Below, piece after piece: positions 1,782 through 35,227 of a stretch of 55,754 bases of DNA. Made by a program: the position numbers and the translations under genes. How positions within the stretch are numbered: position 1 is the first letter of the stretch; each line of letters opens with the position of its first letter. The notes under the pieces are model-generated. The model was not told the origin of the DNA, searched no databases, and worked only from the letters and a program-made list of their open reading frames with translations. The DNA lies in assembly GCA_043825215.1 (NCBI GenBank), contig JBDRSD010000063.1:1-55754 (forward strand), read 5' to 3'. Source of the DNA: Nanobdellota archaeon (lineage in GTDB: Archaea > Nanobdellota > Nanobdellia > Woesearchaeales > JAHJEM01).

Positions 1782-1800
1782 GATGAGTCCGACTGGATTT
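1782..1800 (-). repeat. decayed copy of tRNA-Lys(CTT) 3' end (distal att remnant)
   Basis: gatgagtccgactggattt matches 15176-15194 at 18/19. Confidence 0.75.
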
Positions 1801-1818
1801 TTTGCCCTGGAAAAATCC

Positions 1819-2412
1819 TTAGAAGTACCCTTCCTGTATTGTCGCATCCACATCGTGGTATTTTAATATAGGCAAAATATCGTTTTTACGTTCGACAGGA
1901 ACCATGATTGTGCTTTTCCCCAATTTCCTTCCTTCAAGCTTCTCAAGAAGCCCCTGATACTTCTTGTCATTCGCTCGAAATCCATATATCTTGTTGAGGA
2001 ATGCGCCTCTGTTTGTGCCAATGCGACTCCAGGAGATGACTGCATATTTTCTGCCTTCGATCCTTCCACCAACATAGGGACCATAGAGAACAATCCCGCT
2101 TGCTTCAATGCTTTGCTTGAGGTCATTCCACTCTTCAAGCTTTCCTACGATGGCATTGATCTTGTTGTCAACTCCTTTTGCCTTGAATATGAGCGCGTCT
2201 CTGCTCTTATAGAATGATTCAATAGCATCTTCGATTTCCTTCTGAATTTTTTTTGTCGCAGAATGAACATCGAAAAATATATCGATGTCGCTGTCTTTCT
2301 TTGCCTCTCCTTTGGCAGCAGAACCGAACAGGATGATGCACCTGACATTTTTCATATTCTGATGAGCAGCCAGGTACCATGAGACAAAGGTGCTCGTGTA
2401 TGCCTTATACAT
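1819..2412 (-). CDS. minimal nucleotidyltransferase (MNT) domain protein with C-terminal extension
   Basis: ILFGSAAKGEAKKDSDIDIF Pol-beta superfamily motif. Confidence 0.85.
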   Translation of the reverse strand: MYKAYTSTFVSWYLAAHQNMKNVRCIILFGSAAKGEAKKDSDIDIFFDVHSATKKIQKEIEDAIESFYKSRDALIFKAKGVDNKINAIVGKLEEWNDLKQSIEASGIVLYGPYVGGRIEGRKYAVISWSRIGTNRGAFLNKIYGFRANDKKYQGLLEKLEGRKLGKSTIMVPVERKNDILPILKYHDVDATIQEGYF

Positions 2413-2815
2413 TTTTCACCTTCTTCTTCAATTCGAGAAAGCAGTCAATTTTCTCTTGGATCGTTTTTTCAGAAACACCTTTCCCATATGCCATGTCATT
2501 ACTGTCCTTTTCGATCAGGTATGCGGAATCAAGAAGGGGATCGATCTCGGGAAGTGATTCGATTGATGCAGTTATCCTTTGCGCAATGAGTAGCTTTGCA
2601 TTTTCTTTCTTCTTTTTCAGCCAGCGATGATCTATCTTCTCGCCTTGCTTAAGCACAGATTTCTTCTTGAGATATTCTTCGAGGAGGGCAACTGTTCCTA
2701 AGGAGAGCAGGAATGCGAGGCGGCGCTGATGAACGATAATGCCTTGGGAATCCTTGAGAGCGCTTTCTATCTCGTCCATCACTTCCTTCATGAGCCCATC
2801 GAATGCTGATGCCAT
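2405..2815 (-). CDS. putative HEPN-like partner of the MNT
   Basis: helical 136 aa ORF overlapping the MNT; SNDMAYG at the usual Rx4-6H/Y position. Confidence 0.5.
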   Translation of the reverse strand: MASAFDGLMKEVMDEIESALKDSQGIIVHQRRLAFLLSLGTVALLEEYLKKKSVLKQGEKIDHRWLKKKKENAKLLIAQRITASIESLPEIDPLLDSAYLIEKDSNDMAYGKGVSEKTIQEKIDCFLELKKKVKNV

Positions 2816-2818
2816 GTC

Positions 2819-2914
2819 GAGACACCTGTCTTGAAGTAATTAAGACACCTGTCTTTAAAAAGATTATGTTTTATGTTAAGATGGATGTCTTAAAATCATT
2901 AAGGCAAGTGTCTT
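2819..2914. promoter_or_regulatory. four palindromic operator-like boxes over the promoter of the 2815 operon
   Basis: AAGACA-nn-TGTCTT-like boxes at 2819, 2842, 2878 and 2901 (spacing 23/36/23), flanking a tttaaa TATA at about 2854. Confidence 0.7.
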
Positions 2915-2950
2915 AATAGAGAATTACGACCATGTCGTTTGTCGTCGGTG

Positions 2951-2986
2951 GTTTGTCGTTCATCGTGGTTCGGACGGGACGGTTCA
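2951..2986 (+). repeat. 36-bp direct repeat, copy 1
   Basis: 34/36 identical to 3739-3774; 24-bp core tcgtggttcggacgggacggttca is identical. Confidence 0.9.
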
Positions 2987-3026
2987 GACGTGTTTCATTT
3001 TGTTCCATCTTATGACTCCCTCACCT

Positions 3027-3296
3027 TTATATTATGTATTCTTCAATCTCTTTCAACTTCTTGATATTCAGTTGATACGCATCTCCGTGTTTGGTTTTTC
3101 CATAGAATAAGACCAACTCTTCCTTGATGAGATCTTCCAAGACCTCTTTCACATATCCTTGAAGGTGGCCTGGAATGCTCGAGTGCAATCTTTCAAAAAG
3201 AAGATGACCTTTACTGAATGCCTGCTTCGCATATAACTTCTTGAGAATGTTCTTCTTAATGCGAAAATAATCGGCTTTACTAATCTTCCCAGACAT
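3027..3296 (-). CDS. small winged-helix-like hypothetical protein
   Basis: 89 aa; VKEVLEDLIKEELV..GKTKHGDAYQLN helix-wing pattern; TATA (tttataa) about 25 nt upstream. Confidence 0.6.
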   Translation of the reverse strand: MSGKISKADYFRIKKNILKKLYAKQAFSKGHLLFERLHSSIPGHLQGYVKEVLEDLIKEELVLFYGKTKHGDAYQLNIKKLKEIEEYII

Positions 3297-3408
3297 CCAG
3301 TTTGGTGTGAAGTCGAGTTTTATAAGCTTTATTCAATTCATTCATATTTATGGCTCTTATTGGCTAGAAATAGAAAGTTTTAAATATGTTGACAGCACCA
3401 CCTAGGTC

Positions 3409-3735
3409 ATGGAAAACAAAACAGCATTTTTGGAGATATTCGGCGATTCACCTGTATTGAGAGCATTAGATTTCTTGATAGTCAATGAAGATTTTGACTA
3501 TAGTATGACTGACATAGCCAATCTATCTGGAGTCGGCTATTCCACGCTCAAATTGTTCTGGAACAGATTGGAAAGGGAAAGGATAGTCATCAACACGAGA
3601 ACAGTAGGTAAGGCAAAGATGTATAAGCTCAACACAATAAACCCTGTCATCAAGAAATTCAGGGAGTTCTACTGGGAGACAACCAAGCAGCATACGCACA
3701 ACAAATTAAAGGAACAGATCTTGGTGGAATCATAA
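3409..3735 (+). CDS. winged-helix transcription regulator
   Basis: YSMTDIANLSGVGYSTL HTH and TRTVGKAKMYKLN wing. Confidence 0.8.
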   Translation: MENKTAFLEIFGDSPVLRALDFLIVNEDFDYSMTDIANLSGVGYSTLKLFWNRLERERIVINTRTVGKAKMYKLNTINPVIKKFREFYWETTKQHTHNKLKEQILVES

Positions 3736-3738
3736 GGC

Positions 3739-3774
3739 GTTTGTCGTTAGTCGTGGTTCGGACGGGACGGTTCA
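3739..3774 (+). repeat. 36-bp direct repeat, copy 2
   Basis: matches 2951-2986. Confidence 0.9.
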
Positions 3775-3846
3775 AGTCGTCATTAGTTCTTCGTTTGTGG
3801 TTCATTGTTCCTTCATCCCGTTCTATCTTCGACTCCGTCAATCAAT

Positions 3847-4416
3847 TTATTCAACAACTTGCAATACTGATTTTTGCATGCATGATGAAGAAACTTTTTT
3901 AATGGATTCCAACAAGAGATTCCCGTATTCTGGAGCAATCTCTATCAAACCAGGCTTGAGGAGTTTTCCACCATATTTTCTCAGAAGACCATACTCTCCC
4001 TTCTTGCCATTCAACATATAATTAAACTTGATCTTGTCCCTTTTTTCAAGATTCTCAAGAGTATAAAATATTTGAACAACTGGAATGAAACCAAATAATT
4101 CTGCTAAATATTTTCCATGAATAATGCTTCTTCCACACAAAAGGATATTTTCTTTGGCAAAATTCGATCTGTCAAAAAGTGAATAATAATCATAAGAAGA
4201 GATATGGATCGCTATACTTGTCAATTTCTCAATCTGCTTTTTAATCTGCTGGGATTGTTGTAATTGCTCCTTGAGAGGGATTTTGAAGAAGATAACTGCA
4301 ACATCGATATCATTGGGATTTGAATTCTCCATGACTGAAGAGCCGAACTGGACTATGTCAATAACATCTTTACTATAGATTAACTTTGGTTTTGTTTGCC
4401 ATAGTTTTTGCGTCAT
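3847..4416 (-). CDS. MNT nucleotidyltransferase domain protein
   Basis: QFGSSVMENSNPNDIDVAV motif; C-terminal domain similar to the 1819 gene. Confidence 0.8.
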   Translation of the reverse strand: MTQKLWQTKPKLIYSKDVIDIVQFGSSVMENSNPNDIDVAVIFFKIPLKEQLQQSQQIKKQIEKLTSIAIHISSYDYYSLFDRSNFAKENILLCGRSIIHGKYLAELFGFIPVVQIFYTLENLEKRDKIKFNYMLNGKKGEYGLLRKYGGKLLKPGLIEIAPEYGNLLLESIKKVSSSCMQKSVLQVVE

Positions 4417-4735
4417 CTTTAATCACCTCTGTCAAATCCTTGCCCAATATCTGGACATAGCTGTTTTGATAGAACGGAAAATCCTTATCCAAGATATCAT
4501 AGACATCGGGGAATTTATTTCGTAAAATACGAAATCTATTCGTGTGGGAAGATGGTGTATCGCCGGTTTTCTCTAATATGTAAAGGTCTATCAATGCGAC
4601 CAATGACTTAAAATAGAGCACAAGCGCAGAGTTGTATCTCTCTTTTTTCAACTCATCTTCTCCCGCGTCAAAATACTCTTTTGCTGTTTTCTTCAGAATT
4701 GAAGCTTTTGGATGCTCTTGCTTTTGATCATTCAT
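4373..4735 (-). CDS. HEPN-domain protein
   Basis: AKEYFDAGEDELKKERYNSALVLYFKSL..PSSHT HEPN-like helices; adjacent to MNT. Confidence 0.7.
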   Translation of the reverse strand: MNDQKQEHPKASILKKTAKEYFDAGEDELKKERYNSALVLYFKSLVALIDLYILEKTGDTPSSHTNRFRILRNKFPDVYDILDKDFPFYQNSYVQILGKDLTEVIKDDAKTMANKTKVNL

Positions 4736-4827
4736 ACCTGGTAAGAAAGACCAACTACTATTTAAACCTTTTCTTACTTGGTAAGAATTTTATTGAATTA
4801 TTTCTCATTTTTCGAACCAGGTAAGAA
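4731..4827. promoter_or_regulatory. three 17-bp imperfect palindromes spaced exactly 40 bp
   Basis: ttcatacctggtaagaa (4731), ttcttacttggtaagaa (4771), ttcgaaccaggtaagaa (4811); they cover the start codon and flank the TATA box. Confidence 0.7.
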
Positions 4828-4945
4828 AAACTGCAAAACGAAGAATCAAATACTGTCAACGATGAATGACAGATGAGACCGGCTGGATTGCAGCCTTTCG
4901 AAGCTAGCTAAGCGATACCCGGCAGGATTCTCACTTGCGGTTCAA

Positions 4946-5077
4946 TCACACGAAAAAACTGAGTCCGACGGGAAAAGGAGGTGAACCCTGCGGCACTGAC
5001 GACGATAAACTTTCATTAGTAGAAATTGTCGTTTTCGTTTCTGAACCCGTACTATTGAACCTATTTGAGTTTGTCAT
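4946..5077 (-). CDS. Int(N): N-terminal fragment of the split integrase (43 aa as integrated)
   Basis: GGAGGT RBS then ATG at 5077; reads MTNSNRFNSTGSETKTTISTNESLSSSVPQGSPPF-PVGL, crossing the att core in the same frame as the PVGL of the integrase ORF. Confidence 0.75.
   Translation of the reverse strand: MTNSNRFNSTGSETKTTISTNESLSSSVPQGSPPFPVGLSFFV
4997..5049 (+). repeat. putative integrase arm-type sites, left end
   Basis: tgacgacgataaa (4997-5009) and ctgaacccg (5041-5049) recur at 15146-15158 and 15115-15123. Confidence 0.65.
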
Positions 5078-5160
5078 GGTGTGAACCTCCTTCGATATTG
5101 TTCATATTATGAATAATAGATATATTTTTAAATGTTGCGGTAAACAGTCCAGTTGAAAGG

Positions 5161-5535
5161 GTGAAAACAATCGTACTCCCTCCAAGAAAGATATACAAGT
5201 TCAGCCATAGCATTGGACAAGGTGGATTTCTCTATTCTCATAAGATACAGATAGGAAGAATTCAGAACAAGGATGGTTTGAGAAATATGCTTCAGGCAGT
5301 GGGGAAGCAATTCAAGCTCATTGATGTGACGGTAAAGATTTATGACGACATCTTCTTTTTTTTCTTCCTGTTTCATACTGCGAGACCTGTTGACTTGATA
5401 AACAAGTTGCAGGAACATCTTCATGAATATGGAGAGTTCACATCAGACTATCTGTATACGACAGTGTATGACCTTCAGGAAGAATACTTGCGAAAAGACT
5501 TGAAGGAATATGGATTTGACTATGATAAAGGATAA
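5161..5535 (+). CDS. IS200/IS605 TnpA (Y1 HUH)-like protein lacking catalytic residues
   Basis: pattern SHSI..LR.ML..IYDDIFF..PVDLINKL..YLYTTV..EEYLRKDL parallels TnpA, but HUH and the catalytic Tyr are replaced. Confidence 0.5.
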   Translation: MKTIVLPPRKIYKFSHSIGQGGFLYSHKIQIGRIQNKDGLRNMLQAVGKQFKLIDVTVKIYDDIFFFFFLFHTARPVDLINKLQEHLHEYGEFTSDYLYTTVYDLQEEYLRKDLKEYGFDYDKG

Positions 5536-5929
5536 GCTAGAATTAAGGAGAGCATTCATTGGGCGATGGCGTATTGTCAAGATGAGTGAGTGGGATAAGG
5601 ATTTTGTCGATGAGGATGTGAAAGCGTACCTGCTCATTGAAAAGAATGGTTCTGGAGAATTTAGGTTTGGTTACGTATCTGGAGATGATGTTCATGGGGA
5701 ATTCAAGCAGCAAGGAAGGGATATTATTTTTGATTTCACTTGGGATGGGAGTGATGAGTGTGACCACGTATTTGGTGATGGCTGGATGAAACTGACTACA
5801 TCAACAACTGCAGAAGGTGAATTGCGATTTCATGGAGGAGAAAAGTCACACTTCTGGGTTAAGAAGTTGAATGAACGAAGACAAGAAGGAACGTCTAATA
5901 AAAAACAGAGAGGGACTCGGAAAAGATGA
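5510..5929 (+). CDS. hypothetical beta-rich protein
   Basis: GRWRIVKMSEWD..GEFRFG..FTWDGSDECD..FHGGE; overlaps both neighbours. Confidence 0.65.
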   Translation: MDLTMIKDKLELRRAFIGRWRIVKMSEWDKDFVDEDVKAYLLIEKNGSGEFRFGYVSGDDVHGEFKQQGRDIIFDFTWDGSDECDHVFGDGWMKLTTSTTAEGELRFHGGEKSHFWVKKLNERRQEGTSNKKQRGTRKR

Positions 5930-6654
5930 GGACAGAACAATTGGATGTGAACGGTACGAAGTATCTTGTCACGATTCATTACGAACAGAGGAACGGTTCC
6001 AGAGTATCCATTGGAAAGAAAGGAATTAACATTCGTGTTCCGTTAGGGATGAGCAGGGACGAGCAAAGCAGGGAAGTACTCAAGATGAAAATTTGGGCAA
6101 GAGAGCAACTTCTGAAGAAACCTGAAAAGTTCAAGAAAGAGCCAGCAAAGGAATATCATGACGGTGACGTGTTGACTATTGGAAATGATGAATATCATCT
6201 TCACATTGATTTCAAGGAGAAGCAGAGCAGTTCTGCAAGGAGAAGTGATAAAGACATCTACCTTTTCATCTCATCATCTCTTTCAAAGGAAAGACAGAAT
6301 GAGCACGTCTCTACTCTGCTCAGCAGAGTGGTTGCCAGAAAAAGGATAGACGAACTCAAAGGTAAGATTTCAGAGTTGAATGACAAGCATTTCCACCAGA
6401 AGCTCAACAAAATATTCTTCAAATACAATTCATCAAACTGGGGAAGCTGCTCAATCAATGGCAATATCAACATTTCCACACGGCTCCTTTTTGCTCCAGA
6501 GGATGTGCTGGAATACGTCTGCATACATGAGCTTGCTCATCTCATCGAGCATAATCATTCTGACAGATTCTGGAAATTAGTGAAAGATGCAATGCCGAAT
6601 TACAATGAAAAAAAGCAATGGCTAAAGGAACATGGGCAAACCTGCACATTTTAA
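5926..6654 (+). CDS. YgjP/DUF45-like (M48-type) zinc metallopeptidase
   Basis: WGSCS..NINIS.RL and YVCIHELAHLIEHNHSDRFW motifs. Confidence 0.9.
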   Translation: MRTEQLDVNGTKYLVTIHYEQRNGSRVSIGKKGINIRVPLGMSRDEQSREVLKMKIWAREQLLKKPEKFKKEPAKEYHDGDVLTIGNDEYHLHIDFKEKQSSSARRSDKDIYLFISSSLSKERQNEHVSTLLSRVVARKRIDELKGKISELNDKHFHQKLNKIFFKYNSSNWGSCSINGNINISTRLLFAPEDVLEYVCIHELAHLIEHNHSDRFWKLVKDAMPNYNEKKQWLKEHGQTCTF

Positions 6655-8233
6655 GAGAACGAAGAAAAACGATAAGGAAGGAAGCCAACAGACCAAGCTC
6701 TTCCTCTTCCGTGACAAACCAGTAGAATACACTATTGCAGACGATTTTGTGAGACACCCATATCTCAAAGAGAATAAAATAATCGCCAAGCAATACCAGC
6801 TCGACATTGCCAAGAATTGCATCCATGAGAACACTGCAGTCATCCTTCCTACTGGACTTGGCAAGACTATTATTGCATTCCTTGTTATCGCTGAGGTGCT
6901 TTCGAAGAAAATACTCTTTCTTGCTCCGACAAAGCCTTTGGTTATGCAGCATTTTGAGAGCTGCAAGAAGTTCCTTGCTATTGATGAGTCAAGGATTGTC
7001 CTTCTTTCTGGGAGCATTCCTGCAAAGAAGCGAAGGGATATCTTCATGGAGGCAACGGTCGTTATTTCCACTCCTCAGACGATAAAGAATGACCTTGAGA
7101 AAAAAAGGTACACGCTCACTGATTTCGGTCTTGTCATCTTTGACGAACTGCATAAGGCAGTAGAAGAGTATGCTTACGTTGAGATTGCCAAACAGTATAA
7201 AGGATTGATTCTAGGACTCACTGCATCACCTGGAGCAAAGAAGAAAAAAATCCAGAAGATATTTGACAACCTCAAGATAAAGAACATCGAAAGCAGGATA
7301 CGGGAAGACATTGACGTGAAGGAGCACATCAAGGACATTGACATTGCATGGGAGAAGACACCACTTGATGAAGAGCTGAAGAAGATACGAGCACCAGTGC
7401 AATCACTCTTCCTTGAGAAGCTGGAAAAGCTCAACAAGGTAGGCATTCTCACCTACAAGAAACCGCAATACCTCACCAAAAAAGACATCCTTGGAGCAAG
7501 GATGGCAATCATCAAGCGATTCTCAAGGACACCTTACGCATTCCACATACACAACAGCCATTCAGTAGTCCTGCAGACATATCACTGCCTTGAGCTTCTT
7601 GACACACAAGGAGCAGAACCATTCCTCAAATACCTTATGAAATTCAAGGAAAAGAAGAAACTGTCAAAGTCAGAGCAGATGTTCATTAATCACGAGTCAT
7701 TGCAGAAAGCAAGAGAACTGGCAGAAAAGAAGAAGGGATTATCGCATCCGAAACTAGCACTGCTAAAAAGAATGGTTGAAGAGCAATTCAAAGAAGAACA
7801 AGATTCTCTCGTTCTCATTTTTACACAATTCAGGGACACCATAGACTCGATAGAAGCAACACTCAAGAACATTCCTGGAGCGAAGATTCATCGTTTTATC
7901 GGACAGGCAAAGAAGGGAAAAGAGAAGGGCATGAATCAGAAGGAACAAAAAGAAATCATCGACAAATTCAAGAATCGGGAAATCAACATCCTCATAGCAA
8001 CATCAGTCGCTGAAGAAGGAATCGACATCCCTAATGTGAATCTCGTCATCTTCTATGAACCAATTCCTTCCGAAATTAGGGGAATACAACGGAAGGGAAG
8101 AACAGGAAGAAGCCACCTCGGAAAAGTCATTATCCTCATTGCAGAAGGAACAAAAGACGAAGCGTACTTCCATGTGGAAAGATACAAGGAAAGCAAGATG
8201 CAAGACATCATCGGAAAAATGAAACACAGGTGA
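6632..8233 (+). CDS. Hef/FANCM/Mph1-like SF2 helicase without nuclease domain
   Basis: LPTGLGKT, APTKPLV.QH, DELH, TASPG, TSVAEEGIDIP, QRKGRTGR; ends right after the helicase core. Confidence 0.9.
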   Translation: MGKPAHFKRTKKNDKEGSQQTKLFLFRDKPVEYTIADDFVRHPYLKENKIIAKQYQLDIAKNCIHENTAVILPTGLGKTIIAFLVIAEVLSKKILFLAPTKPLVMQHFESCKKFLAIDESRIVLLSGSIPAKKRRDIFMEATVVISTPQTIKNDLEKKRYTLTDFGLVIFDELHKAVEEYAYVEIAKQYKGLILGLTASPGAKKKKIQKIFDNLKIKNIESRIREDIDVKEHIKDIDIAWEKTPLDEELKKIRAPVQSLFLEKLEKLNKVGILTYKKPQYLTKKDILGARMAIIKRFSRTPYAFHIHNSHSVVLQTYHCLELLDTQGAEPFLKYLMKFKEKKKLSKSEQMFINHESLQKARELAEKKKGLSHPKLALLKRMVEEQFKEEQDSLVLIFTQFRDTIDSIEATLKNIPGAKIHRFIGQAKKGKEKGMNQKEQKEIIDKFKNREINILIATSVAEEGIDIPNVNLVIFYEPIPSEIRGIQRKGRTGRSHLGKVIILIAEGTKDEAYFHVERYKESKMQDIIGKMKHR

Positions 8234-8239
8234 ACAATC

Positions 8240-8380
8240 ATGGCAAAAAAAACAGTATCATTTACGGTAGAAGAAGAGGTAGTTGAGAAGTTCAACCGAC
8301 ACTGCGATGAGAATAGCATCAATAAGTCGAACTTGGTAGAGAAGATGATTAAGCGGTTCTTGGAAGAAAAGAAGAGGTAG
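8240..8380 (+). CDS. ribbon-helix-helix (CopG-like) protein, 46 aa
   Basis: MAKKTVSFTVEEEVVEKFNRHCDENSINKSNLVEKMIKRFLEEKKR; aggtga RBS; not in the ORF track. Confidence 0.75.
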   Translation: MAKKTVSFTVEEEVVEKFNRHCDENSINKSNLVEKMIKRFLEEKKR

Positions 8381-8856
8381 AACGACTCTTGTTATTAGCT
8401 GGTGGAGAAATCTTGGCAATTTTTGGTATGTGTTTATACGACTTCCAGTGGCAGGATATGGAGGTTATAGACCAGCATCGAAAATGAAGGGGATAAAATA
8501 TTTCTACTCGACTTTATCAAAAATATTAAATTCATTGCTGGAAATCGAGCAAAATCTTGCATTGTTAGCCTGACGTGAATATGATTTCCAAAAACAAAAA
8601 AAGTACTCAAGTTTGGCAATAACTTTATTAATAGATGTTCACACTTGACTATTGGTGATACCTTTGGAAAATACCGAAATAAAAAAGAAAGCCCTATGTA
8701 CGAAGGGATACTCTCCAAAGCAATCGATAGTCTCAAGGGAAGGATACAACCCCGAAACCTCGATTCAAGCAAGAAATGCTGGCTTACCACAAACAGACCA
8801 GACACCGCAAACTCCACCAAAAAACGTGAAGAAGGACATAAGCAACAAGTAATCCG

Positions 8857-9276
8857 ATGGCTCTCGAAATTTGGATATCTGCGGTTGGAACGTTTTTTGC
8901 AGGAATTGGACTTTTTCTCAATTGGCATGCAATAAGAGAAGAAAATAAAACAAGGACAGCTCAGATATTTATCGATTCATTCGAAAGGATAATTAAAGTC
9001 GAAAAATCACTGTACACTGATTTCGATATAAAGTCAGTAAACCAGAAAAAAGAATGGGATAGCCTTTTGTTTAATTCTATTGAATTATTCGCAATCATGG
9101 TTAATACCAAAATGATTAAAGATAAACCCATGAGAACTTTTTTCGATGATGCAATAGTTCGATGGTATGAAGAGATTTTTTTAAAATTCCACGAAGATGA
9201 GGTTAATGAAGGAAAGATGTATCCTGAATTTAAAAAATTATACCACTCCATAAAAAGTGAGCAACTAAAAAAATGA
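8857..9276 (+). CDS. hypothetical protein with N-terminal membrane anchor
   Basis: hydrophobic N-terminus followed by a helical domain. Confidence 0.65.
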   Translation: MALEIWISAVGTFFAGIGLFLNWHAIREENKTRTAQIFIDSFERIIKVEKSLYTDFDIKSVNQKKEWDSLLFNSIELFAIMVNTKMIKDKPMRTFFDDAIVRWYEEIFLKFHEDEVNEGKMYPEFKKLYHSIKSEQLKK

Positions 9277-9302
9277 GCAAGTGACTTCGGAGGTATTTCA
9301 AC

Positions 9303-9449
9303 ATGAGACGGTTTAAGAATGGTGCAACTCATATAAGACCTCAGGAACCTGTAATCATATCTGGATTATGTCCTGTGTGCCAAAGAGCAAAGCCGACACA
9401 TGAAGATGGTCTATGCGACTATTGCCATCTTAAGAGATTTACACATTAA
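9303..9449 (+). CDS. zinc-finger microprotein, 48 aa
   Basis: ggaggt RBS; CPVC...CDYC; not in the ORF track. Confidence 0.55.
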   Translation: MRRFKNGATHIRPQEPVIISGLCPVCQRAKPTHEDGLCDYCHLKRFTH

Positions 9450-9528
9450 TTTTTTGCTCATTTTGTTGGGAATGCAAGTATATTTACCTTTCCCGTCCCT
9501 TGGGGCGGTTGGGTAATTGATTTAAAGT

Positions 9529-9798
9529 TCACAATTCCATTTTCTTCTCAACCTTCTTGCCAAGACTTGTTTTTTGGTAGATGCGTCCAGTCTTCTCGTT
9601 TGGATTGATGGTTTCCACTAGACCTTTTTCTTTCAGCTCCTTGAGTGCTCTGGATACAAGGTTGAAGTAGGTGTTGCTTGATTTACCGTACATTTTCTTT
9701 GTCACTTCTGATGGCATCATTGGCTTGTCAAGGGCTTTGAATATTTGCAGTCGATTCTTACCCCTCCTGACATAACCCACTAGTTCCAACAAGTTCAT
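9529..9798 (-). CDS. winged-helix regulator (ArsR/MarR-like)
   Basis: PMMPSEVTK..VSRALKELKEKGLVE..GRIYQKTSLG. Confidence 0.85.
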   Translation of the reverse strand: MNLLELVGYVRRGKNRLQIFKALDKPMMPSEVTKKMYGKSSNTYFNLVSRALKELKEKGLVETINPNEKTGRIYQKTSLGKKVEKKMEL

Positions 9799-9943
9799 AG
9801 CAATTTATAAACGAATTGAGTTTAAGAAGCAAATTCAACAATCTATTAGCAAATTACCAACAAAAAACCGAAAAATATAAATAGGATGTCACGAAAAAAG
9901 GAAGTAAGTCAATAGTTAGAAAAAATAAATTGGGGGGAAATAT

Positions 9944-10279
9944 ATGGCAAGAACTACTGAGTTTGTTCTAGGGTTGATTGGAGGAATCGTTGGATTCATC
10001 GGAGCAATAATCGCCATGTTTGTCGGAGGTCTTGGCGGTGCATTTGGAGCGAAAGGAGCATCAACCATTGTAACGCTTGGTTGGGTTGCCATCCTATTTG
10101 CAATTATTGGAATAGTTGGAGCTGCTCTTGTAAAATCAAAGACAAAACTTGGCGGTTGGTTCATGCTTGTCAGTGCAATAGGTGGTTTGATAGCAGTCAG
10201 CTTTGCCTATGCACTTGCGTTCGTTCTTCTCCTCATTGCAGGTCTTATGGCTGTACTGAAGAAGGGGGATAAAAAATGA
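9944..10279 (+). CDS. small multi-pass membrane protein (DUF4064-like)
   Basis: RTTEFVLGLIGGIVG start; 3-4 hydrophobic helices. Confidence 0.75.
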   Translation: MARTTEFVLGLIGGIVGFIGAIIAMFVGGLGGAFGAKGASTIVTLGWVAILFAIIGIVGAALVKSKTKLGGWFMLVSAIGGLIAVSFAYALAFVLLLIAGLMAVLKKGDKK

Positions 10280-10830
10280 GAATGCAATATGCCTTTCTTT
10301 TTTTTGTCCTTTTTTTCAGCATAGCATTATACGGATGTACATCCGAACAAGGAACAACAGCGAGCACGAAAGATGATGCTCAAGTGGACAAAAAAAGCAA
10401 TGAACAGGTTCAAAGCGCAATACTTTCAACTGCTCGAAAAGCAGAAGTCATGGATGTTGCAAAAAACTGGGATGAAGACTTGGCTGATGATGGTCTAATA
10501 ATATATCCAGAATTGAGGGACGAAAATGACAGCACTGTCGAGTTTGAAGGAGTAACCCTAAAAGTGGATATGGAAATCTGGACAACAAAACTTAACGATA
10601 ATTTTAAGGAAGTAAAAATCAGAAAAATCTACAGCGGTTCAGGGACAATCGATAACTGGAGAGATGGTAACTTCATGTATGATGGCGGCATAAAAATTCC
10701 ATTCGAAGACATTAAAGCTGTAGAATCGGATAGCGACCATGGATTATTGCTTATCAAAATATACGCCAATAATAAGACTTACGAAGCTAAAAGCACAATG
10801 GGTGTAAGAATAAAACCTGAAGCAGAATAA
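10276..10830 (+). CDS. putative lipoprotein
   Basis: signal peptide ending in LYGC. Confidence 0.7.
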   Translation: MRMQYAFLFFVLFFSIALYGCTSEQGTTASTKDDAQVDKKSNEQVQSAILSTARKAEVMDVAKNWDEDLADDGLIIYPELRDENDSTVEFEGVTLKVDMEIWTTKLNDNFKEVKIRKIYSGSGTIDNWRDGNFMYDGGIKIPFEDIKAVESDSDHGLLLIKIYANNKTYEAKSTMGVRIKPEAE

Positions 10831-10853
10831 ATTAATGAAACGAGGAACGAAAA

Positions 10854-11543
10854 ATGAACTCAAAATATTTTGTCATAATCTTTCTTGGTCTTGCGTTTGT
10901 ATTTCTTTCAGCTTGTTCATCTCAAACTGTTTACAAATTTCAATGTTCTGACGGTACGTTCGTCGACACTGCCAGTAAATGCTCTTTAGCAAACGTTGCC
11001 GAACTCTCCAATGAACCAATTAACTGTTCAGCTTGTCCCGTAAAAACAGAAACGAAAGTTGAAACAAACACGGTAACAGAGAAGATTTATGTCTGCTCAG
11101 ATATGCGGGAAGTAAAGACTGCAAACGACTGCAAAAGCACCGAACAAAAAGCAATAGAATCTTCAAGCGATAATCTTGTCCTAACTATTAATAGTGCACG
11201 TACTGCAAGAGCCATCGGAGACTATTCAATGGAAACTCTTAAGTCGGATGAACAATATGTAATAGTCGATTTCACTATCTACAACAAGGAACTTGAAGAT
11301 GGATACGAATTCAATCCCAACTGGGTACTCCTTGAAGATAGCAAGGGGTATAGTTACAGCTATTCGTGGAACAGTCCAAATTTACCAAAATATTGGGGAG
11401 GAATGGCTGGCGTAACTGTTGAATATCAACAGAAAAAGAGCGGAGAATTAGCTTTTGTTGTGCCTAAGACTGAAAAGAAGTTTACATTAATTGTTAAAGA
11501 CTTTACTGGAGTAAATGGCAAAAAAACATTTACACTAACTTAA
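10854..11543 (+). CDS. lipoprotein with Cys motifs and DUF4352-like Ig domain
   Basis: LSAC lipobox; CSDG..C; YVIVDFTIYN..LEDSKGYSY..SGELAFVVPK. Confidence 0.75.
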   Translation: MNSKYFVIIFLGLAFVFLSACSSQTVYKFQCSDGTFVDTASKCSLANVAELSNEPINCSACPVKTETKVETNTVTEKIYVCSDMREVKTANDCKSTEQKAIESSSDNLVLTINSARTARAIGDYSMETLKSDEQYVIVDFTIYNKELEDGYEFNPNWVLLEDSKGYSYSYSWNSPNLPKYWGGMAGVTVEYQQKKSGELAFVVPKTEKKFTLIVKDFTGVNGKKTFTLT

Positions 11544-11562
11544 CGAAAATAGAAAGGAAACC

Positions 11563-11955
11563 ATGAAAAAGTGCTCACAATGCGGAAAAGAACTGAAAGC
11601 ATTTGAATCAAAAGAGAAATTTAAGGACAATACTTTCATGTGCAAGATTTGTTTTGAGAGTTGGAAAAAAGACCAATCCCACGAACAAGAAGCATCAAGA
11701 AAAGACAACATCAGTAAAGCATTGCAGAAAAATTCACAATGGGAATATCGACTAATAACAGTCGAGACAGATAGAAGCAGCTTTGTTGCATCGAACGTTA
11801 AGCTTACGAAAGTCGAGGATACCCTGAATAAACTAGGTGAAGAAGGCTGGGAGCTAGTGGCTGCAATAGGACTTCAAGCTATCTCTGCTGGATTAAGCGT
11901 TCATTCACCAGGAACTACCACTAACGTATCCTTTGTTTTCAAACGAAAGGTGTAG
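11563..11955 (+). CDS. zinc ribbon plus DUF4177-like domain protein
   Basis: CSQC..CKIC; WEYR..LNKLGEEGWELV..FVFKR. Confidence 0.8.
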   Translation: MKKCSQCGKELKAFESKEKFKDNTFMCKICFESWKKDQSHEQEASRKDNISKALQKNSQWEYRLITVETDRSSFVASNVKLTKVEDTLNKLGEEGWELVAAIGLQAISAGLSVHSPGTTTNVSFVFKRKV

Positions 11956-12695
11956 CCAAACGTATTTTTTTATCCATAACCGACAGCGAAGCTGGCGGAC
12001 AATAACAGGGTGGGTGGGGTGGGATTCAATATCATCACACCCGTTCTCCATCAGACCTTTACCTTTTGGTCTTCTTTGTATAACTTTGCTGGTGGACATT
12101 GTTTTTCAGAGAGGGGTTGCTTCTGTAACGTGATGCTCATTTTCACATTTCGTTTTGTTTTATGGAATACAAATTCTTGATTGTCTACTGGAACTTTGTC
12201 AGGGTAACAAAATTCAATTATACCGTGGTAATCAGGGAAGTTCAGGGTATTCCCGTCTTCAATTACATAATCCCAAATTCAACAATGCCAATTACAATTA
12301 CACAGTTTCTCCTGGAATAACAATATTGAAATTGAACAGCATCTAACGTCTGCAAAATATAGTTCTACCTACAGAAATCTATTAATAGTCGAGCATCTAG
12401 TCTGAATGAAATCCGTTTTGTTATTTTTGGTCATCGACGATAAACCAGTTTTTTTACATTTAAATCAAGTGCACAACAATGCATTGCAATCATCGATTGC
12501 TTCCACTTCTCCACTCTTAATTAACATTCTTGTTACACTTTTTTATGGCAACATTGCTAAAAATATCGATACATTTGAGTGTATATTGTTTGATTGTTTC
12601 CACTATTCATTGTTTGATTCTTTGAGTGGAGCAATGGTTGAGTGTTGATAATCGATGCAAACTAGCTAAAGCAATGGAACCATGGAGGAAGGAAG

Positions 12696-14039
12696 ATGAC
12701 GCAAACAAGTGAACTACAATATGAATATGGGTTTTATACCCCCTGGCTGAATATGCAAGACTTTCCAAAGGAACTGGAAATTGTCAGAAGAAAGTTTCCA
12801 ATGGAAGATGAAGAAGTACAATTCAATCTGGTAATGTTTGCAGTGAACCTAGAGTCTGGAGCAAAGGCAGTATCTCGGAGTGCAGGTTGGTTTGCTGATA
12901 AAAATCCAAGCGGAATCCATTGGCACACCTATCAAGCTTCTAAACGAGCTCAAAAAGTTCTGGAATGTGGTAAATACATTACGATAGAATTGGGACAACG
13001 CTCAGAACATAAATCATCGATTCTTCATCCTTTGCCTGATTTTTATGAACTCTTTGGGAATACAGCGGTTATCGAAGGACGACACATCGATGTAAGCACG
13101 AATCCAAATGCAATCATCCACTATAACAAGAAGAGAAAAGGAGAGAAATATCTTCCGTTAAGTGCAACTGAACATGATATTCGAATTCGTCAACTAACCA
13201 AACCATATCAGTATAGACAAGGAGACATCATTAATATCATCCCTGCAACCAGATATGACTTAGCCATAAGACAAGTATTGAGGGAAATGAGGGAACTCAA
13301 TGAAAAATATTTTTCTCAAATCGAACTTGGCTTCAGGATAAAAGAATACAATGGCGTGATAGCTACGAAGGTTAAGCTGACAAGGGTGCTGAGTGCGTAT
13401 GATGATGGAGTGTGTGGTGGTGGACGACTCTATCAGCGGAAGGCATCGTCATATCAAGATATTCCTTCGGATGAGCGGAATTTTATGACAATCAATGGAC
13501 AATCCACTGCAGAGGTCGATATTTCATCGATGCATTTGATATTACCTTATGCTCGGGTGGAGCATCAACCAGAAGGTGATTTGTATAATCCGATTTCTCA
13601 GGAGTTATTCGGAGAAATTAATCAACAGTATAGGGATGTTGTGAAAGAGCCATCCATCATCCTTTTGAATTGTACGGATAAAGACCAATTCCAAGGAGCA
13701 ATCGAGAAATATGATAAAAATAAGCATGCTGTCTGTGAGAATTATAAAGTTCTTATGGAGCACAAGATAACGGGAAGAAAATTCATTCAGGCATTCAGAA
13801 AGGTTCATCCCAGATTAGAGCGTTTTATTCTCTCTGGAATTGGGCTTGATTTGCAGTATGACGATAGCTGCATAATGGTAAACATTCTGTTTCGTCTGTT
13901 TGAAGAAGGGATTCTTGCTCTACCCCTTCATGATTCAATTATCTGTCAAGTGGGGATGGAGCAGAGAGTAAAACAAATCATTGAGGAAGAGTTCCACAGG
14001 TACACTGGATTTTATTGTAGAACAAAAATTGAGCGTTAA
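12696..14039 (+). CDS. family A DNA polymerase / T7 RNA polymerase-like palm-domain protein (putative replication protein)
   Basis: GGRLY, motif A-like TAEVDISSMHL, motif B-like RDVVK, motif C-like LPLHDSII; ggagg RBS. Confidence 0.7.
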   Translation: MTQTSELQYEYGFYTPWLNMQDFPKELEIVRRKFPMEDEEVQFNLVMFAVNLESGAKAVSRSAGWFADKNPSGIHWHTYQASKRAQKVLECGKYITIELGQRSEHKSSILHPLPDFYELFGNTAVIEGRHIDVSTNPNAIIHYNKKRKGEKYLPLSATEHDIRIRQLTKPYQYRQGDIINIIPATRYDLAIRQVLREMRELNEKYFSQIELGFRIKEYNGVIATKVKLTRVLSAYDDGVCGGGRLYQRKASSYQDIPSDERNFMTINGQSTAEVDISSMHLILPYARVEHQPEGDLYNPISQELFGEINQQYRDVVKEPSIILLNCTDKDQFQGAIEKYDKNKHAVCENYKVLMEHKITGRKFIQAFRKVHPRLERFILSGIGLDLQYDDSCIMVNILFRLFEEGILALPLHDSIICQVGMEQRVKQIIEEEFHRYTGFYCRTKIER

Positions 14040-14245
14040 GAATTTTGTAATCTTTTTTGTAATGTTTTTTTTTATTCTGTTTTTTGTTATTATTTTTTAT
14101 GATTTCTCTTTCTTTTCTTTCTTATTTTTCTCCTTTTTGTTAGTGGCGGAAGACACACACGCCGCCACTTATCATTACAGAGCAGTTCATATAACTTGTT
14201 CCACCCAATCAAAAACCCATCAGAGCATTATCTGTTCCACCCTCT
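14040..14245 (+). other. candidate replication origin or terminator region of the element
   Basis: ~100 nt T-rich tract, GC hairpin agtggcgg/ccgccact (14142-14169), two cagagca...tgttccaccc repeats. Confidence 0.45.
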
Positions 14246-14287
14246 AACTATTGGAGCAATTCTTGCTCTCCCTCTCTTACCAACCAA

Positions 14288-15191
14288 TCATCGTATTATC
14301 TGCCACAGCTGAGCTAGCTTCTTCATATCCTCCTTTTCTCTCATGTCGTCTTTAAGGTTCTTCTCGAATACCTTATCCATTGACATATCCAAATCATTCT
14401 GAGAGGAATGGATGTATACTTGCGTACTTTTTATTGACGTATGTCTAGCTAACTTCTGAGCCACTATGGGGTCTTTTGTTCCCTTGTAAACTCTTGTTAT
14501 GAAATAGTGTCGGAGTGAATGCGTTGTCAGTCGGTAGAGCTTCCTGCTTTGTTTAACATAGCTTTCCTCGCTACGTCCATAATTCTCATTCATTCCTGAC
14601 AATACACAGACGTCCCTGAACGTATTTCTAAGCCAATGTGGACTAATATGTTCTTCCCTATTCCAATCACTCTCTGAGTAGAGAATGTGTCCAGAATGGG
14701 CTTGTATTGCGTTTAGGTGCAAGTCTACCCACGTCTTAAGAGGTTGATATATTTCGTCGTGAAGATAGAGGGTATCACCTGTTCTTGCTTTCTCAGTCAA
14801 TACATGGATTTTCCTTCTGGGGAAGTCGATATCATCCAATCGAATCTTGACTACTTCACCCACTCTCAACCCAAGATTAGCCATTAACCGATAAGCCATA
14901 TTTGCCTTGGGATTCAGGCAATAGGAAAGGAACGTCCTCAGTTCTTCATCAGTGAATCCCTTGTTAATATTCCCGTACTTCGGATTCTTCGGTTTCTTGA
15001 ACTTCTTTCTCATCATTTCCTGTACTGCTCCTTGTATTTCTTCAAGCCGATGTTTTGGTAGCATCCCTAAGAATTCCTTGCTAATCAAATATTGGAAGTT
15101 TTCGTACCCTGTACCTGAACCCGAATCTGTTAAAGAAATCTCATTTGACGACGATAAAACTGCGTGAGGGGAACAGATGAGTCCGACGGGA
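14288..15191 (-). CDS. tyrosine integrase, Int(C) fragment (internal Met at 15064)
   Basis: GLRVGE, TEKAR, HSLRH, ARH, TQVY catalytic residues; frame open up to and through the att core. Confidence 0.93.
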
Positions 15192-15295
15192 TTTGAACCC
15201 GCGGCCACTCGATTACTTCAACCGAAGGGCGAAGGATTGACGACGCCAGTCGGCAATAAGAGTCGAGTGCTCTAACCAGGCTGAGCTACGGACCC
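15178..15295 (-). tRNA. tRNA-Lys(CTT), 43-nt intron at 37/38 (15214-15256)
   Basis: GGGTCCG/CGGACTC acceptor stem, CTCGA anticodon stem, CT-CTT-A|A loop, GTTCAAATC T-loop. Confidence 0.95.
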
Positions 15296-15387
15296 GCTGT
15301 TATGTGTCCTGCAGCAAAGTGTGGTCGAGCGAAGCGAGCGCCGCACGCTTTTCGTCAACCTTTTTTGCAAAAGGTTGGTTGAGTTCG

Positions 15388-15413
15388 CTAACCAGGCTGA
15401 AGCTTTTGGACCC
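15388..15413 (-). repeat. decayed copy of tRNA-Lys(CTT) 5' end, upstream of the gene
   Basis: ctaaccaggctgaagcttttggaccc versus ctaaccaggctgagctacggaccc (15272-15295); TATA tttataaat about 25 nt further upstream. Confidence 0.75.
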
Positions 15414-18390: not shown

Positions 18391-19749
18391 TTACAGAATG
18401 AATGACTCTTGTCGTGCAGGTATCTTGCATTGGAATCCCTTCTCTGTCAGCTTTTCCTTCAGTGCCTGTGCTGGTTTTTCCTCTCCATGCACGATAAAGA
18501 CCTTCATAGGCTTCTTGAACCCAGATGCCCACCACAAGAGATCCCTCTGGTCAGCATGCGCAGAAAACCCGTTGATCTTCTCCACCTTTGCCTTCACAGC
18601 AATTTCAGTACCCATCATCCTAACCTTCTTTGCACCCTCAAGGATGAATCTGCCAAGCGTCCCCTTGGCCTGAAAGCCCACAAAAAGGACAGTGTTCCTC
18701 GGATCCCACAACCCGTGCTTCAAATGATGCCTGATACGGCCAGCATTCGCCATGCCTGAGCCTGCAATGACAACATATGGCTCTTTTTTCTCGTTTAACA
18801 TCTTTGATTCATGCGTGCTGTCAAGCATGACCAGATTCTTGAAAGAGAACGGGTGGTTGATGTTCACCGTCTCGTCATAGCATTCAGGATGCCTCTCGAA
18901 AACCCGGGTTGCCTTTATAGCAAGCGGGCTGTCCAAGTACACTTTCTCATTCGGGAATTTTCTCTGCAAAAAACTCTTCCTCATGCTATAAAGGAGTTCC
19001 TGAGTCCTCTCAACAGCAAAAGATGGTATCAGCAACCGACCTCCTTTCGCATACGTCTCCCGCGCAATTCTCACGAGCAGCTCATCCCTGCCTATCGGAT
19101 CCTCATGCATACGATCGCCATAGGTAGATTCCATGATGACATAATCTGCTTTCAGGACCTGTTCAGGATCCCGCACGATAGGCACATCCCTCTGGCCGAG
19201 ATCCCCAGAGAAGACAAGAGCCTTATCCTCCAGGCGGATTCTGATTATTGCTGACCCTATGATGTGGCCAGCATCAAAGAATTCGACTTCCACTCCTTTC
19301 ATCGGTGAAAAAACGCTGTGATACGATGTCTTCTTGAAATGCGGGAACGTCTCTTTGACATCCGAAAGTATATAGAGTGGCTCCCTCTCGGGAACGCCCT
19401 GCCTCTTCCTTCTCTTGTTCTCCATCTCTGTCTCCATCTGCTGGACATGGGCAGAATCCTCAAGCATGATCTTGCAGAGGTCAATCGTCGCGGGCGTTGC
19501 AAAAATACTTCCCTTAAAACCCTCTCGTACAAGCTTTGGCAGAAGACCGGAATGATCAATATGCGCGTGCGTCAGCAAGACAAAACCGATATCCCTCGGC
19601 TTAAAAGGAAATTCCTCGTAATTGATCCGAGTAATGTCTTTTGTGCCCTGGAACATCCCGCAATCAACGAGAAACCTGACCCCATACGATTCTACCAGAA
19701 AGCACGAACCAGTCACGCCCCCTGCCGCACCACAGAATACAAGTCGCAT
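18391..19749 (-). CDS. metallo-beta-lactamase beta-CASP ribonuclease
   Basis: THAHIDHSG, AGHIIGSA, MESTYG, FSAHAD. Confidence 0.92.
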   Translation of the reverse strand: MRLVFCGAAGGVTGSCFLVESYGVRFLVDCGMFQGTKDITRINYEEFPFKPRDIGFVLLTHAHIDHSGLLPKLVREGFKGSIFATPATIDLCKIMLEDSAHVQQMETEMENKRRKRQGVPEREPLYILSDVKETFPHFKKTSYHSVFSPMKGVEVEFFDAGHIIGSAIIRIRLEDKALVFSGDLGQRDVPIVRDPEQVLKADYVIMESTYGDRMHEDPIGRDELLVRIARETYAKGGRLLIPSFAVERTQELLYSMRKSFLQRKFPNEKVYLDSPLAIKATRVFERHPECYDETVNINHPFSFKNLVMLDSTHESKMLNEKKEPYVVIAGSGMANAGRIRHHLKHGLWDPRNTVLFVGFQAKGTLGRFILEGAKKVRMMGTEIAVKAKVEKINGFSAHADQRDLLWWASGFKKPMKVFIVHGEEKPAQALKEKLTEKGFQCKIPARQESFIL

Positions 19750-23460: not shown

Positions 23461-23557
23461 TGCTCCCGCCGGGATTCGAACCCGAGTCGCTGGATGTTTC
23501 CGGCGCACGTTGCGCTTCGAGAATCCAGCATGATTGGCCGGACTACACTACAGGAGC
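23461..23557 (-). tRNA. tRNA-Glu(CTC), 22-nt intron at 37/38 (23496-23517)
   Basis: GCTCCTG/CGGGAGC acceptor; CTGGA stem; TTCT/GGAA BHB helix. Confidence 0.95.
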
Positions 23558-34989: not shown

Positions 34990-35227
34990 GAAGAAGAACG
35001 AATTGAAGAAGTGCGAAGAGAACAAGGGAGGGAAGAGAACAAGTGAGGATGAGAACAGGGGAGGAAGAGAATGAAAGAGGAAGGGCAGAAGGTGTAAAGA
35101 GAATGAAAGAGGAAGAGAACAGAGGAGGAAGAGAACAAGGGAGGAAAGAGAACAAGGGAGGAAAGAGAACAAGTGAGGATGAGAAGGAGAACGAAGAGAA
35201 AGAGGGAGGAAGAGAACAGGGGGGGAA
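34990..35227 (+). repeat. purine-rich degenerate tandem repeat
   Basis: recurrent gaagagaacaagggag / gagaatgaaagaggaag units; almost no pyrimidines on the + strand. Confidence 0.85.

Follow-up and report, generated by a model that had tools for sequence, protein, structure and literature searches.

A winged-helix family A polymerase of the divPolA2 family in a tRNA-associated integrative element of an archaeon

The locus at positions 12696-14245 of the window (the whole 55,754-base stretch of Nanobdellota archaeon DNA that was analysed, contig JBDRSD010000063.1) raises the question of what kind of polymerase is encoded beside the integrase of a small archaeal integrative element, and whether such an enzyme could start the replication of that element. 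A first-pass annotation had read the locus as a family A-polymerase-like replication gene followed by an origin-like tract. The interval so described covers the gene together with the tract downstream of it; the gene proper ends at 14039, and in the list of open reading frames (ORFs) of the window it runs from 12696..14039 on the plus strand, with an ATG start, a Shine-Dalgarno-like GGAGG immediately 5′ of this ATG, and a product of 447 aa. The motifs originally quoted for the protein are all present in its translation (GGRLY at 242-246, EVDISSMH at 273-280, RDVVK at 313-317 and PLHDS at 410-414). What is new here is that the protein is an archaeal, non-viral variant of the recently described divPolA2 polymerase family.

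The 447-aa protein had no match in Pfam at E<=0.1, PF00476 (DNA_pol_A) included, and none in NCBIfam; no PADLOC model matched it, and searches of PDB sequences, both with the protein and with its profile, gave nothing significant. Among the PHROGs it matched phrog_4756, a group of unknown function, at E 7.1e-38. A word-indexed homologue search recovered the polymerase itself only; the family came from an exhaustive HMMER search, which recovered 3,438 representative clusters passing E<=0.001, of which 545 passed E<=1e-10 and 22 passed E<=1e-30. The core common to the family corresponds to residues ~240-445. A 48-sequence alignment of the family (A1) served as its profile, and none of these 48 members matched PF00476.

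The connection to a described group came from phages. The A1 profile matched the divPolA2 representative AUR84708 CDS (MG592441.1) at E 3.9e-32, hhalign to the same protein gave 99.2% (E 1.8e-19 over 207 columns) and BLASTP gave E 2e-9. Full-length structural matches in BFVD were phage proteins of 400-450 aa (TM score by query 0.47-0.66, E 1e-21 to 3e-15), the Rheinheimera barbavirus protein A0A4P8NBL2 being among them, and tblastn found homologues in 94 phage records, mainly of large Vibrio, Aeromonas, Shewanella and Pseudoalteromonas phages. Because of the profile, hhalign and BFVD matches to phage members we assign the 447-aa protein, on sequence grounds, to divPolA2. The family was described by Yutin et al. 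(Virol J 2024, PMC11348598) as ~430-aa phage proteins that have a PolA palm but lack an exonuclease, their N-terminal domain being one for which that description gives no detected similarity; their structural neighbours are listed there as DNA polymerases (DNAPs) together with the mitochondrial RNA polymerase (RNAP) 6ymv. The archaeal protein resembles them in its size, in the missing exonuclease, in having an N-terminal globular domain and in having both PolA enzymes and 6ymv as structural neighbours. It differs in its setting, as divPolA2 was described from bacteriophages, the search in PMC11348598 being of a Caudoviricetes database only, whereas the carrier here is a small integrative element of an archaeon, in which no virion gene or second polymerase was recognised. 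A literature search found no later paper that mentions divPolA2.

An AlphaFold2 model computed from A1 had a pLDDT of 85.6 and a pTM of 0.86; a single-sequence model was discarded (pLDDT 30.4). Foldseek returned 150 matches in the PDB at E<=0.001, and all 49 of the matches listed were family A DNA polymerases. The best match by VIA was the apicoplast Pol (9qsc; Z 15.1, rmsd 3.3, 243 residues aligned, query residues 143-447), and other DNA polymerases matched with Z 14.2 (Aquifex Pol I, 8jrb), 13.2 (Klenow) and 12.0 (T7 DNAP). The family A polymerase fold (PolA/T7-RNAP) proposed at first is thus borne out by the alignment-based model and by its Foldseek and VIA matches. The model divides the gene as follows:

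12750..13085, plus strand: N-terminal winged helix-turn-helix of MarR/PadR type (codons 19-130; VIA Z 6-7.3 to MarR/PadR/HxlR regulators)
13092..14036, plus strand: thumb-like region, palm and fingers (codons 133-447; VIA ranges 133/143-447 on PolA enzymes)

On this model the gene product is predicted to consist of two modules, an N-terminal winged helix and a minimal family A polymerase without a proofreading domain. That the protein carries no exonuclease domain, as had been noticed from its sequence, agrees with the empty Pfam and NCBIfam searches, and its N-terminal 130 residues form a winged helix in the model instead; a PadR profile matched the same end weakly (E 0.11). The winged-helix model suggests a fold for the N-terminal domain that was left without assignment in the 2024 divPolA2 paper.

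Conservation of the active site was counted over the 150 best family representatives, in ungapped rows. R244 and D275 were each kept in 149/149, D413 in 150/150, K317 in 148/149 and H412 in 144/150; the position of R313 held Arg in 137 and Lys in 12 (n=149), and the fingers residue D295 was Asp in 132/149. The motifs follow one another as GGR (243-244), motif A (D275), motif B (R313/K317) and motif C (H412-D413-S414). In the secondary structure of the model, D275 closes the strand 269-276, and H412-D413 lie at the turn between the strands 408-411 and 414-418; by this placement both Asp residues are predicted to be located as in PolA, one on the motif A strand and the other in the motif C hairpin. 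Comparison with three phage PolAs by hhalign at low mact was colinear across the motifs though weak (E 0.0018, probability 15%), and the weak colinear pairs with T7 DNAP were D275-D475, R313-R518, K317-K522 and H412-D413-S414 with H653-D654-E655. Alignments of the profile to the single sequences of T7 DNA polymerase and T7 RNAP were insignificant (E 0.31 and 0.33).

The distribution of the gene was then considered. It is present in one copy in the genome of the window, and was found in 0/3 genomes of the same genus, 0/6 of the same family and 3/60 relatives; among 400 other genomes of the phylum sample three had it, one copy being broken. The polymerase gene belongs to the mobile, accessory part of the genome. 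In another genome of the same class (L026, G388:C17, 9467-10728) the homologue lies in two frames with two in-frame TGA codons, and is either a decaying copy or a case of a different reading of TGA. The closer relatives of the protein are full length, have 30-35% identity, and come from archaeal metagenome-assembled genomes (MAGs) labelled archaeon, Nanoarchaeota or Woesearchaeota. Related loci were searched for with a 10-sequence alignment; scans with the archaeal sub-alignment gave one locus in IMG/VR and three in metagenomes, and a plasmid collection gave one or two weak matches, to hypothetical proteins of Sphingomonas and Thioclava.

Two of the related loci could be bounded in the same way as the element in the window. 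In L009, perfect 69-nt direct repeats of the 3′ part of a tRNA-Phe gene lie 6,774 bp apart, and in L008 repeats of 53 nt, 94% identical, lie 5,789 bp apart; in both, the tRNA-derived repeats enclose the polymerase gene on the plus strand and a convergent PF16795 integrase gene that overlaps the attachment (att) site. A third locus, L016, has a PF00589 integrase, an Mrr-SF2 helicase adjoining the polymerase, a DUF4352 protein and the same small winged-helix gene as the window. An integrase gene occurs within ~5 kb of the polymerase in the window and in 3/5 related archaeal or metagenome loci with usable flanks (L008, L009 and L016), which supports the linkage of homologues to mobile elements. 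The only genes common to all three att-bounded elements (the window, L008 and L009) are the polymerase and an integrase, and Pfam places the integrase in PF00589 for the window and in PF16795 for L008 and L009. An ORF of 72 aa is common to L008 and L009 alone. That the three elements have only polymerase and integrase in common is, in our view, the strongest contextual argument for the polymerase being the core propagation function of the element. A gene for a '23S rRNA intervening sequence protein' (a four-helix bundle, bAvd-like) adjoins the polymerase in L010 (9295-9648) and in L016 (8465-8830); these two genes are 41% identical, and the element in the window does not have one.

The element in the window occupies about 4960-15190 (~10.2 kb), and its insertion site in this small archaeal genome is the 3′ end of a tRNA gene with an intron. 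Its recognised features, beside the polymerase, are:

15178..15295, minus strand: intron-containing tRNA gene of 118 nt, the integration target (Rfam RF00005, 56.5 bits; missed by ARAGORN)
15178-15190, minus strand: proximal att core CCCGTCGGACTCA (13 nt), within the target tRNA gene
14288..15208, minus strand: C-terminal part of a tyrosine integrase, Int(C) (PF00589, E 8.6e-21; phrog_216, integrase)
4946..5077, minus strand: putative Int(N), a 43-codon ORF ending in the distal att-like copy (4960-4994), its frame shared with Int(C) through the core
5926-6654, plus strand: YgjP-like metallopeptidase (Pfam)
6632-8233, plus strand: superfamily 2 (SF2) DEAD/ResIII helicase (Pfam; phrog_16, DNA helicase, E 4e-39; partial PADLOC matches to defence helicases)
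9529..9798, minus strand: small winged-helix regulator of 89 aa (HTH_20/MarR-type Pfam matches, weak and all below gathering scores)

The polymerase gene therefore lies beside a tyrosine integrase gene at a tRNA gene, and the integrated-element setting given in the first-pass annotation stands. The open frame of Int(C) continues into the 3′ end of the tRNA gene, and the 13-nt core is read as P-V-G-L, in the same frame, in Int(C) and in the distal short ORF. Int(C) had 230 homologues at E<=1e-10, the named ones being from Woesearchaeota, Nanoarchaeia and other archaeal MAGs. The Int(N) ORF resembles the N-termini of full-length integrases (~20 aa before the GSNP encoded by the tRNA T-arm), with weak BLAST matches (E 0.19-9.8). 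The integrase gene appears to have been split by the insertion, in an SSV-type arrangement. The core has a direct repeat, TTTATCGTCGTCA, on either side, and a third, similar copy lies near 12434. The G+C content is 36-42% over ~3-15 kb and 43-55% beyond. As had been claimed, no capsid, terminase/packaging or conjugation gene was recognised among the ORFs of the element with Pfam and PHROGs, and the same searches recognised no other replication gene, second polymerase or virion gene. The SF2 protein, 4.4 kb upstream of the polymerase, is the only helicase; the 89-aa regulator is 49% identical to an ORF in L016 and 34% identical to one in L010; further genes code for DUF4064, DUF4352 and DUF4177 proteins and for several unknowns.

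Copies of the tRNA 3′ end are found at 4960-4994, 4872-4890 and 1782-1800, the copies at 1782-1800 and 4872-4890 being 95% and 84% identical to 15176-15194. The low-GC stretch of ~3 kb between these two copies (1782-4890) carries nucleotidyltransferase-type genes (PF01909/PF18765; PADLOC PDC-S09-like) and was probably left behind by an earlier tandem insertion at this tRNA gene; for the ORF at 3409-3732 within it, L009 has a homologue with 37% identity. The 5′ part of the target tRNA gene recurs as an incomplete copy, 87% identical, at 15378-15400, ~116 nt upstream of that gene.

What the polymerase does for the element can be approached by context and by analogy. Plasmids and viruses of archaea are known to replicate with AEP-type (archaeo-eukaryotic primase) prim-pols, MCM, rolling-circle Reps or PolB. 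The reading that we favour, tentatively and with a probability of roughly 0.45, is that the polymerase acts as an origin-binding replication initiator, or primase-polymerase, of the excised circular element; it draws on the genomic context and on analogy to CCPol-MP and to the predictions made for TV-Pol. The excised element would circularise, which would restore the split integrase gene; the winged helix would then bind a double-stranded site near its own gene, where the polymerase module would start DNA synthesis, with a primer that it makes de novo or a short one that it extends, as CCPol-MP of SCCmec does. The copy could be finished by the host PolB/PolD, or by the polymerase itself with the SF2 helicase of the element.

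The functional parallel in this argument, CCPol-MP of SCCmec, primes with dNTPs according to Bebel et al. (2020, PMC7581432); it is the only tested precedent for de novo priming by a PolA-type enzyme. CCPol and the 447-aa protein are both exonuclease-less enzymes of PolA type, encoded in an integrative element with recombinase genes adjacent (Bebel et al., 2020, PMC7581432; Rice, 2023, PMC10061031). CCPol, as those papers describe it, has a recognisably PolI-like sequence ('PolA' conserved domain), whereas the 447-aa protein has no PF00476 match, and CCPol needs a small OB-fold partner, MP, and the Cch2 helicase encoded downstream, neither of which is present here.

The first-pass annotation had likened the protein to TV-Pol, a group of minimal PolA relatives predicted to be primase-polymerases of mobile elements (Iyer, Abhiman and Aravind, 2008, PMC2579912). 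The part of this comparison that stands is the minimal core of PolA type; the closest described group is divPolA2, and the protein is not demonstrably a TV-Pol. The features shared with those given in PMC2579912 are the minimal PolA core with the beta-hairpin Arg (G243-R244), D275, D413, the fingers D295 and R313xxxK317, as well as the occurrence in mobile elements with integrases or resolvases. However, no D5-like helicase was seen linked to the polymerase gene, and the N-terminal domain is a winged helix here and all-helical in PMC2579912. In Microcystis phage Ma-LMM01 the A1 profile matched nothing at E<=10, a first look having passed 0 candidates, and PF00476 falls there on another, PolA-like gene. 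A homologue in Sphingomonas adjoins a resolvase gene, an MmeI-type restriction-modification gene and an AbiJ-like gene, a neighbourhood that resembles the TV-Pol contexts of PMC2579912.

With the PrimPol-helicase Reps of small archaeal plasmids (pRN1 ORF904) the polymerase shares the proposed role, that of a single plasmid enzyme which recognises the origin and primes; those Reps have an AEP fold, whereas the palm and fingers here are of PolA type, and the protein has no fused helicase. The T7-like and mitochondrial RNAPs and N4 RNAPII are similar in fold, in the HDS-type motif C of T7 RNAP and in carrying an extra N-terminal DNA-binding module. They differ in that the 447-aa protein is about half the size of the T7-like and mitochondrial enzymes, has no recognisable specificity loop or promoter-binding domain, and has Asn in place of the O-helix Tyr.

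For the site that the winged helix would bind, the noncoding DNA on both sides of the gene is of interest:

14042..14141, plus strand: T tract, 72% T and 82% pyrimidine, beginning 3 nt after the polymerase stop codon
14142..14169, no strand assigned: GC hairpin with an 8-bp stem and a 12-nt loop, in both the minimum free energy and the centroid structures
14178-14206 and 14221-14242, plus strand: two copies of CAGAGCA..TGTTCCACCC, read from the sequence
11956..12695, no strand assigned: ORF-poor stretch of 740 nt upstream of the polymerase, with ORFs of 50-80 aa only and short repeats

The ~100-nt T tract, the GC hairpin and the two repeats 3′ of the gene, all named in the first-pass annotation, were found again in the sequence. 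The tract is the most single-base-rich 100-nt stretch of the window (runner-up 56%). Folding of 14036-14290 gave z = -2.48, with 1/200 shuffles folding equally well. Searched on both strands of the entire window, the 10-mer TGTTCCACCC has just two exact copies (14197 and 14233), and CAGAGCA precedes each of them, at 14178 and 14221. Plasmid origins usually combine an AT-rich unwinding region and repeats next to a rep gene. The tract, hairpin and repeats would be the leading candidate for the winged-helix site; they may form an origin, with unwinding region and repeats, or, with equal right, a terminator of oligo-T type that separates convergent genes and has sites for protein binding next to it. 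The upstream stretch 11956-12695, which has no match to genes of the related loci, is another candidate origin region. It holds two copies of GATTG(C/T)TTCCACT, at 12495 and 12592, and a 13-nt string, CAAATTCAACAAT, at 12274 that recurs in a divergent promoter region at 9830.

Several observations weigh against a role as replication initiator, and the first of them concerns this DNA. The proposed origin is without backing from conservation: neither a T tract nor a hairpin was found conserved downstream of homologues, a comparable tract being present at 0/5 loci, where the T or A fraction of 100-nt windows in the first 400 nt after the gene stayed below 60% (best 0.44-0.53). It does speak for the initiator reading that in each of the three bounded elements the polymerase gene is immediately followed, on its 3′ side, by noncoding DNA, of 248 nt in the window and of ~446 and ~774 nt in the others. 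L008 (9385-9402) and L009 (3774-3791) share, ~40-70 nt after the stop codon, the block ATACCATTAGCA(C/T)TACA with 17/18 positions identical; it is kept amid otherwise diverged noncoding DNA, the two polymerases being 43% identical, and is itself a candidate cis-acting site. We give even odds to the alternative that the T tract is an archaeal oligo-T terminator and spacer, placed where the polymerase and integrase genes converge, that hairpin and repeats are integrase or regulator sites or due to chance, and that the tract is not an origin. Oligo-T ends transcription by archaeal RNA polymerase, the tract lies exactly between two convergent genes, 3 nt past the stop codon, with several T5-T9 runs, and the related loci, as just described, have no such tract, L008 and L009 sharing a different block instead. 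However, 100 nt of 72% T far exceeds what termination needs and is unique in the window, the layout of an AT-rich region and repeats beside a rep gene is that of the usual plasmid origin, and the 10-mer occurs nowhere else in the window.

Two further points against the initiator role come from the element itself. The distal att copy is imperfect, and the element may therefore be immobilised. There is also no gene for an MP-like OB-fold partner 3′ of the polymerase, where the noncoding 248 nt are followed by the convergent integrase gene; the fused winged helix may replace MP as the DNA-binding part.

The active site provides other points of the same kind. The steric-gate Glu of PolA DNA polymerases (E480 in T7 DNAP) is replaced by H280 (136/149), the O-helix Tyr (Y530 in T7 DNAP) by N325 (147/149), and motif C is HDS rather than HDE; with these three features the substrate may be dNTPs or rNTPs. 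A second explanation is that the protein is a single-subunit DNA-dependent RNA polymerase whose winged helix recognises a promoter and whose product is element mRNA or an origin primer transcript, such as T7 RNAP makes at the T7 primary origin. The motif C of T7 RNAP is also HDS, and the His in place of the DNAP steric-gate Glu points in the same direction. VIA aligned more residues to single-subunit RNAPs (yeast mitochondrial RNAP, Z 13.3, 337 aligned over 18-444; T7 RNAP, Z 11.2, 335 aligned; N4 RNAPII, Z 7.8) than to DNAPs (240-266), and one neighbouring ESM Atlas cluster is auto-named 'DNA-directed RNA polymerase family protein', which is a lead only. On the other hand, the top Z-scores (15.1 and 14.2) are those of DNA polymerases, the O-helix Tyr of T7 RNAP (Y639) is Asn here, and the phage divPolA2 representative retains the Glu at the steric gate that the archaeal branch has replaced by His. 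Known promoter-specific single-subunit RNAPs are twice the size of this protein, in which no specificity loop could be recognised; moreover, no motif of at least 11 nt recurs in at least three of the six intergenic regions of the element, although the element has few transcription units. We consider an RNA polymerase improbable.

The phage relatives also count against the initiator. The divPolA2 family is biochemically uncharacterised, and Yutin et al. propose for it a 'repair DNAP or RNA polymerase', in which the RNAP possibility is raised directly (PMC11348598). The same paper states that phage divPolA2 is encoded in addition to a regular DNA polymerase, and it is therefore not the main replicase there; a regular PolA was also present in the two phages checked among the carriers of homologues.

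Last among these points are fusions of the complete polymerase module to DRT4 defence reverse transcriptases, found in 3/150 of the best representatives (P0089, P0092 and P0121; 917-948 aa). Their N-terminal part is a complete DRT4 (UG15) reverse transcriptase (PADLOC Drt4, E 1e-169 to 1e-183, residues ~7-510) and their C-terminal part a complete winged-helix-polymerase module with intact motifs (hhalign 99.96%, E 3.8e-39, profile columns 28-418). The fusions occur on many contigs, one member being from a Lentisphaeria MAG, and no mention of a DRT4-divPolA2 fusion was found in the parts covered of the UG/Abi survey (PMC9226505). Such full-length fusions indicate roles outside replicon initiation, and because they exist an RNA polymerase or a defence-linked polymerase has to be kept in view. 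The polymerase could, in a third explanation, be an accessory DNA-synthesising conflict enzyme (defence, counter-defence or repair) that travels as cargo of integrases and phages and is not a replication initiator. Besides the fusions, this would fit the Sphingomonas homologue beside resolvase, MmeI-type and AbiJ-like genes, the Mrr-SF2 helicase adjoining the polymerase in L016, the variable neighbourhoods of phage copies described in PMC11348598, and the report in PMC9226505 that UG9 reverse transcriptases work with a family A polymerase. It is less easily reconciled with the finding that, apart from an integrase, three small att-bounded archaeal elements without another replication candidate have no large gene but the polymerase in common; PADLOC has no model that matches it, and the fusions are a small minority (3/150). 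We judge a conflict enzyme unlikely, and the origin-binding initiator remains the reading that we favour.

Three other features were observed in the window. At 18391-19749 on the minus strand lies a gene for a 452-aa beta-CASP nuclease of metallo-beta-lactamase fold, which also matches aCPSF1; of the NCBIfam models it matches that of the type VII CRISPR Cas14 best (E 1e-124, positions 1-425 of 612), at 417 bits far below the 800-bit cut-off. A second tRNA gene seen by Rfam only, of 97 nt and probably intron-bearing, lies at 23461-23557 on the minus strand. The strongest strand asymmetry of the window is a purine tract at 34992-35207, with 88-93% purine over ~200 nt.

The polymerase connects divPolA2, so far known from phages only, with elements of archaea, islands of bacteria and defence reverse transcriptases. 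Literature searches, which did not cover the supplements of Yutin et al. and Iyer et al., where members may be listed, did not turn up an archaeal integrative element reported to have a family A-type enzyme as its core gene. The active-site residues are strictly conserved across a large and biochemically uncharacterised family (3,438 clusters), and such an enzyme could serve as a small, sequence-addressed polymerase. It is conceivable, although we regard it as rather doubtful, that winged-helix-PolA proteins form a third, hitherto unrecognised class of origin-specific priming polymerases, one of them being the only replication protein in the smallest known tRNA-integrating DPANN-type plasmids (5.8-10 kb), and that large phages and DRT4 reverse transcriptases have taken up the same module. 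If this were true, a family A enzyme would be central to an archaeal replicon, and more than 3,400 sequence clusters would gain a function.

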